Both the position numbers and the translations under genes were made by a program. A stretch of 62,564 bases of DNA, the filler included. It is 4 parts of 4 records of this genome, joined end to end, with 100 filler letters (N's around TTAATTAATTAA, not from the genome) between each part and the next. Parts side by side here need not be neighbours in the genome. Positions count along the whole stretch, not along the records: positions 24,934 to 40,322 come from SRR31156797_14844; 3 more parts are not named here. The stretch is one strand, 5' to 3'. Shown here one piece after another: positions 24,934-28,031 of this stretch (its first letter is position 1; each line of letters opens with the position of its first letter). The notes beneath the pieces are model-generated. The model had not been told where the DNA came from and did not search any database. It worked only from the letters and a program-made list of their open reading frames with translations.

Positions 24934-26335
24934 ACAGGCCTATTTCCTGTTCAAGGAAGCAGCGGGCGCTCTTTGTTGTCTGCTCGCCCGACTTCCCCAT
25001 GACGCGTGCGCCCAAAAGGCTCATGATGCGGTCATGGGCCTGTTGAGTCGAACCACGGGTCATGCACAGCGGGCCGCTGCTGAAGCCCTGGGTGGGCTTC
25101 CTTTCTCCATTTCGGGTCCTTTTCCGAAACAGGAAGGGGAAACAAGATTTCCGATTTTGGGGTGGCGGGCCTTTTTGGAAGAAACCCGGACGTCATGTGA
25201 GGGGATACCCCGTTTCATGGGCAGAAGCCTCATTGTTAAAACAGCCGTAAATGATCATTTGTTGGTGATCAAACTGGCCGGTGAAAAGGACAACCCCGAA
25301 TCTCTGCTTCAGGAGGCGAATTGGCTGTACCATTTGAGGCGCAACGGTTATGTTTTTCCGGTAAAGTTTCATATCCCTCAAATCATGACGGTTGGGGGAA
25401 GTATTTCATTTAGGTTAAAAGACATCCCCATTTCCGCTCCCTGCGGGACAAAGCGCCATTCAAAGGGTTTTGCCATCGCTTTCCTGGCGCACCCGGATTA
25501 CTTCAAATACCCAAACGAAGGGGATTTAAAAAAACAGCTGGGTGCTGAAGAATTTTGTGAAACCGTATGCCGGAACGCGTTCTTATTCGGGAAACTGACC
25601 GGCCTGGGCATAATTCATACTGCACCCATACCCCTGTTTCATAACCGGGTGCAGGGTCCCAGGAGGGATGACCGGGGCCGATACCTCTGGCAGCGGGGAG
25701 GGCGGCTGGACCGATGGCTCTGGTCCTGCCGTTACCCCAATTTCGGTCTCTCCGGCATTCGGGATTTTGAGCACCTGGAGCCTTTCCAGGGACCGGCCCG
25801 AAAAGCCTATTCACCCATGGGGGCGCAGCTCTTGAGCCTTTTTCTGGTGACGGGAAGCTATTTTCGCATGAAAGACAGCCGCAGGGTGGGACTGGAACCC
25901 GGTGGCCGGCCCGTGGATACCAGAGAGCTGTTTCATAAACCCCTGCTTCAGGAAATCATTCAAGGTATTTTCCACCACTATTACAAGGGTTTCGTGGGAA
26001 AGCCTTTCAAAGGGGCCGTACCGGTCAATTTTTCCGCTCTGGCGGCGCGTATGGTGGATGAGATGGGCGTGGATCGATACATGGAGGAAATGCTGAGAAT
26101 TGCGGACCAGCAGGAAATGACGGATGCGGCGTTTATGGATTTTTTGTTGGAACGCGGTGTATCAATGGAAAAAGTACAACAAATGAGAAGGGGAGCGGAG
26201 GATATCACGCTGGTTACCGGACCCCATCTGGGCGGGTTCAACCAGCAGATATCCATTCCGGAGCTCATTGAGTCCGTGGGAACCATGGCGGCCCTGTGCA
26301 TTTACGGAAGGTATTGTGAAGAAAAATTGAAATGA
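24934..26335 (+). CDS. SidJ-related pseudokinase (5' end truncated by contig edge)
   Basis: Frame is open back to the contig start (QAYFLFKEAAGAL...). Motifs GRSL, VIKL, YFKYP, LFHNRVQGPRRDDRGRY, GRLDRW, YPN, SGIRDFEH and HLGGFN match my recollection of the Legionella SidJ core (FHTH...REDKGRY...GRIDKW...YVN..SGLAD). Confidence 0.8.
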
Positions 26336-26347
26336 GGAAGAAAGCCC

Positions 26348-26944
26348 ATGACAACGAATTATGAAAAAATGATCCGGAAAAATCTTTCAGGCCTGTTCGA
26401 AAAACTCCCCCCCGATCTGGAAACACGTTTGGGGGCCTCAAAAAGCGGTGAGGGTTTTTCCCTTCAAGCCTTTGGCGAAAAAGTCTGGTTCGATCACGAG
26501 CAGGTGACGTTTTCCGGCAAAAAAGACGTGGATCCAAGAGGACTTCTGGTCTCCCTTTATGCAACCCATGCGAGACCTGAAAAAATTCAGATTGAGCCTT
26601 ACAAGGCCTTCAAGGATTTTCCGGGAAGCATGCCCTATCACGGGGCTTTCAGCGCCAACAGCGAGCGGGTGTTGATCCCCCATGTAAACAAAATCCTGGA
26701 AAAAAAGGGGGAAATCATCTCTGCTTTTGATGGCAAAGCGATTCAAAGCGGCGATTTTTCCATGCTGCTCTATCCTTTTCCAAAGATTGTGGTCTGCACC
26801 ATTTTCTACCTGGAAGATGAAGATTTTCCCCCTTCGGCCACCTGCCTTTTTTCAGCCAACGCCCTTGATTTCATGCCCCTGGACGGCCTGGCCGATGTGG
26901 CGGAATACACATCCAGAAAAATCATCCGGATGGTTTCGGAATAG
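26348..26944 (+). CDS. DUF3786 domain protein
   Basis: LLVSLY, FKDFPGSMPY..AF, GDFS.LLYPFPKI, DEDFPPSATCLF pattern. Confidence 0.75.
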   Translation: MTTNYEKMIRKNLSGLFEKLPPDLETRLGASKSGEGFSLQAFGEKVWFDHEQVTFSGKKDVDPRGLLVSLYATHARPEKIQIEPYKAFKDFPGSMPYHGAFSANSERVLIPHVNKILEKKGEIISAFDGKAIQSGDFSMLLYPFPKIVVCTIFYLEDEDFPPSATCLFSANALDFMPLDGLADVAEYTSRKIIRMVSE

Positions 26945-26957
26945 GGATGCGGGGATC

Positions 26958-28031
26958 ATGATCGAAAAAAGCATGAAACATGATGCACCCTTGTGGAAAC
27001 AGCTGCTTTCAGAAAGTACCGTAAGCCTGGATGCCCTCCCTTGGCCCCCATCCGGCCACCGGGAAAAACTGGAACGTGTCATAGCCCGGTATCCCATGCG
27101 CATCAACCCCTATTACCGGGGGCTCATGGGCGAAGAGAATGACCCCATATACCGCCAGTGTGTGCCGGATATTCAAGAGCTGGACGATACCGGGGCCGAA
27201 GCGGACCCCTTAAACGAAGAAGGGCATTCGCCCGTTTACGGCCTGACCCACCGGTATCCGGATCGGGTTCTTCTCCTGGTCTCTTCGGAATGCGCCATGT
27301 ACTGCCGGTTCTGCAACCGAAAGCGAAAAGTGGGGCGTGGATCAATGGTAACGGATACGTCCATTGAACGGGGAATTGACTATATCAGAGCTCACGGGGA
27401 GGTGCGGGATGTGCTCCTCTCCGGAGGCGACCCCCTGCTTTTGGAAGATGCCCGGTTACGGGAAATCCTGAACGCCATTCACGCCATACCGCATGTGGAA
27501 ATCATACGGATCGGCACAAGGGTCCCCTGCACCCTGCCCCAACGGGTCACGCGAAAATTGGTTGCTTTGCTTCAAAAATTTCACCCCCTCTATATCAATG
27601 CCCACTTCAACCATCCCATGGAAATTACGCCTGAATCAAGCTTGGCCTGTAACCGTCTGGCCGATGCGGGAATCCCCTTGGGTTGCCAGACGGTCCTCTT
27701 GAAAGGGGTGAACGATGACGTGAATATCATGGGGACGCTTATGCGGAAACTCTTGACAATCCGGGTTAAACCCTACTATCTCTTCCATGGAGACCCTGCC
27801 AGGGGAACATCCCATTTCAGGACGTCCATGAAACGGGGCTTGAATATCATACGGGGACTGCAGGGTCATACTTCCGGCCTCTGCGTTCCCCATTATGCCA
27901 TCGATCTTCTGGGCGGCGGCGGCAAGGTGCCGCTTTTACCGGATTATCTCACGGGTCAAGACGGTGATGACCTGCTGGCAACCAATTACGCGGGAAAACA
28001 TTACCGCCATCCCGATGGAGGTGATGATTGA
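26958..28031 (+). CDS. KamA-family radical SAM enzyme, lysine 2,3-aminomutase type
   Basis: THRYPDR, CAMYCRFC (CxxxCxxC), LLSGGDPL, IRIGTRVP, PYYLFHGD, AIDLLGGGGK (PLP Lys). Start moved to ATG 26958, after the DUF3786 stop. Confidence 0.88.
   Translation: MIEKSMKHDAPLWKQLLSESTVSLDALPWPPSGHREKLERVIARYPMRINPYYRGLMGEENDPIYRQCVPDIQELDDTGAEADPLNEEGHSPVYGLTHRYPDRVLLLVSSECAMYCRFCNRKRKVGRGSMVTDTSIERGIDYIRAHGEVRDVLLSGGDPLLLEDARLREILNAIHAIPHVEIIRIGTRVPCTLPQRVTRKLVALLQKFHPLYINAHFNHPMEITPESSLACNRLADAGIPLGCQTVLLKGVNDDVNIMGTLMRKLLTIRVKPYYLFHGDPARGTSHFRTSMKRGLNIIRGLQGHTSGLCVPHYAIDLLGGGGKVPLLPDYLTGQDGDDLLATNYAGKHYRHPDGGDD

Follow-up and report, generated by a model that had tools for sequence, protein, structure and literature searches.

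To our knowledge, SidJ is the only kinase-fold enzyme that has been shown to ligate amino acids. SidJ and SdjA of Legionella pneumophila (PDB 6OQQ, 6K4K and 7MIR) are calmodulin-dependent kinase-fold glutamylases, and many SidJ homologues are present in free-living anaerobes, with a full active site and no known substrate or activator. In Escherichia coli, EpmB (YjeK), EpmA and EF-P form a system in which Lys34 of EF-P is beta-lysylated. We analyzed a stretch of DNA of 62,564 nucleotides, spacers included (hereafter the window), that carries in a row a SidJ-like gene (gene 1), a gene of the DUF3786 family (gene 2) and a gene for a lysine 2,3-aminomutase of the KamA family (gene 3). An earlier note on this DNA had proposed the three as a new system for protein beta-lysylation or amino-acid ligation, and a conserved gene partner would have opened the question of the SidJ-like substrate to testing. 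We found that the SidJ-like family has no conserved gene partner among 102 loci, and that its KamA and DUF3786 neighbours are a local arrangement. The proposed system was unsupported: the linkage is not conserved, the partner of KamA likely lies elsewhere, and DUF3786 is not obligate. The three neighbouring genes are probably not a new protein-modification system, and on balance we lean towards an operon restricted to one lineage, whose three genes had evolved separately before they came together, rather than a dedicated three-part modification system. Without a family-wide partner, the target of the SidJ-like enzyme has to be sought by biochemistry or proteomics and not by gene context.

The three genes, from a bacterium of the sulfate-reducer type, are located on the plus strand at 24935-26335 (gene 1), 26348-26944 (gene 2) and 26958-28031 (gene 3). 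The earlier reading of three co-oriented genes separated by 12 and 13 nt was borne out, a purine-rich stretch precedes each start codon, and the genes are almost certainly co-transcribed. Gene 1 stands at the very start of contig 24934-40322, so that its upstream context is absent; it is 5′-truncated, with 466 aa present and about 68 codons missing, as full-length relatives have 534-548 aa. Genes 2 and 3 encode proteins of 198 aa and 357 aa, respectively.

Gene 1 matched the NCBIfam model NF033874 (SidJ-related pseudokinase, a hypothetical equivalog) with 616.1 bits against a cut-off of 300 (E 5e-185, profile positions 46-507), and differs from this family solely by its truncation at the contig start. 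No Pfam model matched it in a Pfam scan. All SidJ-type motifs that had been read in gene 1 (GRS, VIK, FH..R.D.GRY, GR.D.W, Y.N, SG..D and G.FN) were found. In a PDB sequence search with E values up to 1, four of five matches were SidJ (best E 0.026), and the fifth was unrelated and weak (E 0.44). The alignment placed R352, K367, E381, N534 and D542 of SidJ, which are the kinase-like ATP and metal residues, at R97, K113, E127, N269 and D277 of gene 1. H492, R500 and Y506 of the "migrated" pocket in the insertion, and R522, which binds the donor glutamate, correspond to H236, R244, Y250 and R257. These positions were invariant among 21 family members (gene 1 and 20 NF033874 members of 40-82% identity), and their conservation reached 95% or more in another 89 sequences. 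The sequence alignment ends at SidJ residue 545, and for SidJ N733 the invariant N436 of gene 1, in the G.FN motif, is a candidate equivalent only. According to the portion of PMC6858067 available, K367, E381, N534 and D542 of SidJ bind ATP and metal; the available portion of bioRxiv 10.1101/2021.04.13.439722 describes H492, R500, Y506 and N733 as holding the acyl-adenylate and R522 as contacting the gamma-carboxylate of the donor glutamate.

The predicted fold resembles that of SidJ as well. The AlphaFold2 (AF2) model of gene 1, built on the 21-member alignment, reached a pLDDT of 88.8 and a pTM of 0.90, and its kinase-like fold matched SidJ over nearly the whole protein (Foldseek TMq 0.47-0.57). 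SidJ chains filled ranks 1-13 of the Foldseek list, with E values of 7e-11 to 9.5e-9 over 458-537 aligned columns, and ordinary kinases started at E 1.8e-4.

Gene 1 also differs from SidJ in several respects. It is only 13-16% identical to SidJ and shorter (full length about 535 aa), its host seems free-living whereas SidJ is an effector of a pathogen, and D545 of SidJ is replaced by an invariant His. The calmodulin-binding IQ motif is absent, as had been noted before; none is conserved across the 21-sequence family alignment. Motif-intact SidJ homologues have already been published from Desulfovibrio, Elusimicrobia, archaea and viruses, and in the portions available of these two sources the non-Legionella homologues are without an IQ motif, without SidE and without an identified substrate (PMC6858067; bioRxiv 10.1101/2021.04.13.439722). 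The latter preprint, in its available portion, knows no SidE-type substrate outside Legionella. The SidJ-like family is already catalogued as NF033874, and the present locus is a further member in a lineage-specific arrangement.

Taken together, gene 1 most likely encodes a glutamylase-type ligase that acts on protein carboxylates, depends on ATP and needs no calmodulin, as predicted from its residues and fold. The residues with which SidJ adenylates the glutamate carboxylate of a protein and takes up the donor glutamate are all kept, as are those around the acyl-adenylate, with N436 as the candidate for N733. The target would not be encoded nearby. The earlier note had suggested a calmodulin-independent ligase that attaches beta-lysine or glutamate. 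The SidJ-type identity, the complete catalytic set and the lack of an IQ motif favour the first part of this suggestion; the beta-lysine part was not supported. The invariant Arg equivalent to R522 suggests that the amine donor is glutamate and not beta-lysine.

We first surveyed the linkage from the SidJ side. In a profile search with NF033874, 20 of 401 sampled genomes of the phylum were above cut-off. The survey took in 22 genome loci, with flanks of up to 7 kb on either side and with three loci from a separate scan of genome contigs among them, and the best 80 of 420 SidJ-like relatives that an alignment-based scan found in metagenome contigs, which makes the total of 102; many of the genomes are incomplete metagenome-assembled genomes (MAGs), and the metagenome flanks are short. 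The SidJ-like/DUF3786/KamA arrangement was limited to one clade of 14 contigs, namely the window, the Desulfobacteraceae MAG G001 and 12 metagenome contigs. The SidJ-like proteins of this clade are 71-91% identical to one another, and the copy of G001 is 82% identical to that of the window. Outside the clade, KamA was adjacent to a SidJ-like gene in none of 89 loci (69 of them with at least 700 nt of downstream sequence), as sought by tblastn, a purpose-built hidden Markov model and Pfam scans of 110 and 65 neighbouring open reading frames (ORFs), the second scan covering 65 of 92 candidate ORFs with near-duplicate loci and the shortest ORFs omitted. A conserved kamA/DUF3786 linkage, for which the earlier note had advised a survey of SidJ-related neighbourhoods, was therefore not found. 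When the immediate neighbours of 101 loci were clustered, no neighbour family spanned the SidJ-like tree, and the largest cluster was the KamA of the one clade. Genomes with a SidJ-like gene were not significantly enriched for KamA either (14/20 versus 185/381, p 0.07).

Gene 2 matched Pfam PF12654 (DUF3786) with 110.4 bits (cut-off 27, E 9e-32, profile positions 3-174 of 176). Nothing sets it apart from this family, of which it is one paralogue among several: DUF3786 was found in 261 of the 401 genomes, often in multiple copies. Twelve contigs of the clade have visible downstream DNA, and the DUF3786 gene is absent from three of them (L100, L105 and L167). L100 retains a short in-frame remnant of both ends of the gene, and in L167 the sidJ-like and kamA genes abut. 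The three losses were independent, because the nearest relatives of L100 and of L167 still carry the gene. DUF3786 is thus dispensable in the operon and was lost without displacing the other two genes. A 57% identical orthologue in genome G143 is located between DUF218 and PMT-type glycosyltransferase genes, and profile search with NF033874 found no SidJ-like gene in that genome. As a component of the proposed system, where it had been given the part of substrate or activator, DUF3786 is therefore no obligate partner. In our reading, gene 2 would be one of several DUF3786 paralogues, which the operon can lose.

In two genomes that resemble each other, G043 and G369, a DUF3786 gene is located just downstream of the SidJ-like gene, and we considered it as an orthologue of gene 2. 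This was rejected; the G043 copy is another paralogue, 21% identical to that of the window, and the best match in G043 (44%) is on another contig. The fold of gene 2 gave no further indication. Its model had a pLDDT of 79.8; Foldseek against PDB returned nothing at E ≤0.001 (best 0.02), and the best Z of a wide VIA-align search was 6.2 (residues 81-198), within the range common for this tool. Literature search on DUF3786 returned no paper related by title.

Several observations speak against separate histories of the three genes. In all 12 clade contigs whose downstream DNA is visible, the sidJ-like and kamA genes stay adjacent while both flanks vary (L107 has lost the beta-CASP gene downstream of kamA, and different genes lie upstream in different contigs), and so stable an adjacency may reflect selection on co-expression. 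In genome G341 a KamA/beta-CASP gene pair lies 3.7 kb upstream of the SidJ-like gene on the opposite strand, with peptidase and transketolase genes in between. The DUF3786 gene behind the SidJ-like gene in the second lineage (G043 and G369), though a different paralogue, exceeds chance by a rough estimate (about 2.5 copies in some 3,500 genes). Besides, the literature we found contains no functional test of any non-Legionella SidJ homologue.

We might speculate from this adjacency that, in this clade alone, the SidJ-like enzyme activates a protein carboxylate as adenylate and joins to it beta-lysine from the co-transcribed KamA, with DUF3786 as an optional substrate or helper. The tight operon with its short gaps, the abutting genes of L167, the adjacency that persists despite changing flanks and the lysine-type pocket of KamA (see below) are in its favour. 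We consider it highly improbable, however, as the linkage is missing at all of the 89 loci from other lineages, genomes with a SidJ-like gene do not follow the distribution of KamA, and DUF3786 was lost three times. Moreover, the SidJ-like enzyme of the clade is unchanged at the conserved positions, the donor-glutamate Arg included: of 90 positions with a conservation of 95% or more outside the clade, 88 carry the same residue within it, and only four clade-specific switches were found, all of them conservative. The KamA clade, finally, has its own conserved context and co-occurs with EpmA. In a broader form, a SidJ-like ligase of one Desulfobacteraceae-type clade would have been recruited to an aminomutase operon, either attaching beta-lysine to a protein carboxylate or modifying a component of EF-P lysylation; we give this little credence. 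If true, two chemistries of non-ribosomal amino-acid ligation would be linked in a novel bacterial protein modification.

Co-expression could also have another reason, namely that SidJ-like enzyme and KamA both act on the translation apparatus, the former for example glutamylating EF-P, EpmA or a ribosomal protein. Conservation of the operon across the clade is in line with this, and a ribosomal protein is known to be glutamylated by RimK. Among the scanned neighbours of SidJ-like genes (110 and 65 ORFs), however, there was no efp, epmA or ribosomal protein gene, and we regard this explanation as very unlikely. The lineage-restricted operon of genes with separate histories remains our preferred reading, and the history of gene 3 is traced in what follows.

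Gene 3 passed the KamA subfamily model TIGR00238 only (282.8 bits versus 199.2). It was under the cut-offs of the equivalog models: AblA, the best-scoring one, gave 426.9 versus 525.4, glutamate 2,3-aminomutase 391 versus 650 and arginine 2,3-aminomutase 331 versus 600. Gene 3 aligned to the lysine 2,3-aminomutase KamA of Clostridium subterminale (PDB 2A5H) with E 1e-104 and, like that enzyme, it keeps CxxxCxxC, R134, D293, D330 and K337. We take D293 and D330 of 2A5H to bind the epsilon-amino group of lysine, K337 to be the lysine that carries pyridoxal phosphate, and C268 to be a zinc ligand. The two Asp residues read earlier as lysine-binding are both kept, HGD and AID of gene 3 aligning to D293 and D330, and so the substrate pocket is lysine-type by its sequence. 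Unlike the clostridial enzyme, gene 3 has Asp in place of C268 and lacks the C-terminal Cys cluster and domain; it stops near residue 370 of 2A5H, before the Cys cluster, which agrees with the previous remark that the clostridial C-terminal extension is missing. Being short and without C-terminal domain, it resembles E. coli EpmB (342 aa). That no epmA, ablB or lysine-fermentation gene is located downstream was likewise confirmed on the contig by Pfam and NCBIfam scans, and there is no ligase or acetyltransferase on it. In this setting, too, gene 3 differs from clostridial KamA and AblA, and AblB (TIGR03827) was found in none of four related genomes.

The neighbourhood was then surveyed from the KamA side. 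KamA-like genes (E ≤1e-90) were found in 199 of the 401 genomes, often in two to three copies, and we examined 21 loci, G341 and the 20 next-closest, whose KamA is 57-67% identical to gene 3. None of the 21 has a SidJ-like or DUF3786 gene beside KamA. A beta-CASP gene is directly downstream of KamA in five of them (G341, G143, G204, G037 and G365) and in five metagenome contigs of the clade as well, and G143 repeats the AAA and TrpB-like genes of the window beside its KamA/beta-CASP pair. In eight others of the 21 loci (L083, L084, L085, L086, L089, L090, L098 and L099), KamA adjoins one or two ATP-grasp genes of the D-Ala-D-Ala-ligase type, usually with a small GNAT. In a quick IQ-TREE phylogeny with SH-aLRT support only, the 7-row clade that includes gene 3 has support 100 and lies within a larger clade of 14 rows (support 97), to which the beta-CASP- and WbqC-linked genes belong; the ATP-grasp-linked genes are placed apart from it. 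Gene 3 is closer to AblA/KamA-like proteins than is E. coli EpmB, which sits on a very long branch.

EpmA was assigned with TIGR00462, which at E ≤1e-84 gave 148 of the 401 genomes. It was found in all eight sampled genomes with KamA of the gene 3 clade and in none of the eight genomes with ATP-grasp-linked KamA, and G001, G143, G317, G341 and G043 all had it above cut-off. The efp gene adjoins epmA in G001 as well as in G317, the two genomes checked, in each case on a contig other than that of KamA, and the EF-P of G001 has the KPGKGQ loop, as E. coli EF-P has. G317 has EpmA and a single KamA-family gene, which is the orthologue of gene 3; G001 has one further KamA-family gene, a very divergent long form. 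Related genomes thus have efp-epmA and, in G001, the EF-P loop of the EpmB system. The earlier note had named a KamA grouping with AblA or EpmB, with partners elsewhere in the genome, as an outcome against its proposal, and our results point to this outcome, as efp-epmA is on another contig in the closest genome and EpmA is found in eight of eight.

Failure at the EpmB model did not decide the question. In 14 genomes a short KamA, 51-60% identical to gene 3, is located within 0.5 kb of epmA by coordinates; 13 of these sequences were retrieved, and a 13-row clade of the tree (support 98) is composed of such genes. One EpmA-adjacent KamA had a sub-threshold pattern near-identical to that of gene 3 (AblA 416, EpmB 244.5). 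We therefore rejected the argument that gene 3 is no EpmB merely by missing the cut-off of TIGR03821, since its EpmA-adjacent cousin misses it too (244.5 bits), and for this phylum the EpmB model seems too narrow. In genomes with efp-epmA, the missing EpmB looks to be one of the short KamA genes that the curated model overlooks. Literature search returned no paper on EpmB with EpmA in Deltaproteobacteria.

From the EpmA co-occurrence, the efp-epmA pair elsewhere, the sole KamA of G317 and the lack of AblB, gene 3 is probably an EpmB-type supplier of beta-lysine for the modification of EF-P. Its product would make beta-lysine, and EpmA, encoded beside efp elsewhere in the genome, would attach it to Lys34 of EF-P.

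This assignment has to be set against several points. The score of gene 3 with TIGR03821 was 226.7 versus a cut-off of 369.3, whereas E. coli EpmB reached 534 bits, and gene 3 is adjacent neither to efp nor to epmA. Its clade is distinct from that of the EpmA-adjacent KamA genes in the quick tree. G143 and G341 each carry a longer KamA paralogue, which might be an alternative supplier for EpmA. Over the 401 genomes, KamA hits and EpmA do co-occur in favour of the assignment (cells 116, 83, 32 and 170; odds ratio 7.4), but this value is uncorrected for phylogeny and drawn from many incomplete genomes. The genome-wide checks for efp, epmA and ablB refer to the genomes of relatives only.

These points bear on an alternative, in which KamA makes beta-lysine or another beta-amino acid for a use other than EF-P (as a compatible solute, in a small peptide, or in some function connected with the beta-CASP or WbqC neighbours) and EpmA is served by another enzyme. 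The separate clade, the highest score of gene 3 being with the AblA model (427 bits), the ATP-grasp ligases and GNAT that adjoin related KamA genes in eight genomes, and the further paralogues of G143 and G341 are consistent with it. On the other side, AblB is missing in all four related genomes, G317 has EpmA and no second KamA-family gene, the contig carries no ligase or acetyltransferase, and EpmA divides the two KamA clades eight of eight against none of eight. We judge this alternative unlikely, though worth bearing in mind, and keep gene 3 as a probable EpmB-type enzyme.

Some features of the KamA loci stand apart from these questions. The beta-CASP gene of the window, a metallo-beta-lactamase-fold nuclease (28216-29820, plus strand; Pfam Beta-Casp, RMMBL and Lactamase_B), has its probable start at 28216 and represents the gene that this KamA clade usually has downstream. 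The KamA/beta-CASP pair (window 26958-29820) recurs in L033, L081, L093, L094 and L095, with no evident reason for the pairing. The gap between the two genes (28032-28215) is 184 nt, AT-rich and has two promoter-like matches; in the close relative L101 it is only 14 nt. Two of the 21 KamA loci, those of the closest outgroup genomes G317 and G143, have a WbqC-family gene (PF08889) directly upstream that overlaps the KamA start (L080:4283-4990 and L081:6056-6772) and is located where the window has the SidJ-like and DUF3786 genes. The ATP-grasp-linked KamA clade comes from eight genomes, all of them without EpmA, and is a candidate for the synthesis of a beta-amino-acid peptide or solute. The very divergent long KamA-family proteins of G001 (L196:419-2212) and G043 (L197:327-2321) measure about 600-660 aa, of which about 180-250 form an N-terminal extension, and pass the subfamily model only.

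In other lineages the upstream neighbour of the SidJ-like gene, overlapping with it or at most a few bases off, is of the histone-deacetylase family, an ATP-grasp of the ADP-forming acyl-CoA-synthetase type, an HAD hydrolase or a transketolase (L040:2024-2821, L041:6144-6944, L045:4764-6932, L002:6096-6722 and L033:4926-6923), each kind restricted to its own lineage.

The window is composed of four contigs (1-24833, 24934-40322, 40423-46978 and 47079-62564) with N-run spacers between them. As read in the sequence, the artificial spacer at 24834-24933 consists of N runs around a short linker with stops in all frames, and GC changes across it from 0.29 to 0.50. On contig 24934-40322, the beta-CASP gene is followed at its 3′ side by an AAA ATPase gene on the opposite strand, and then by TrpB-like, MocA-like, purA and mnmG genes. 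The GC content of contig 1-24833 is 0.29 and that of the other three about 0.50, and the former probably came from another organism or a mobile element and was binned with Desulfobacteraceae-type contigs. It carries a MobA/VirD2-type relaxase of 1334 aa (19190-23194, minus strand), together with a LytS-type histidine kinase, a TctA transporter and a galactarate-dehydratase-type gene.

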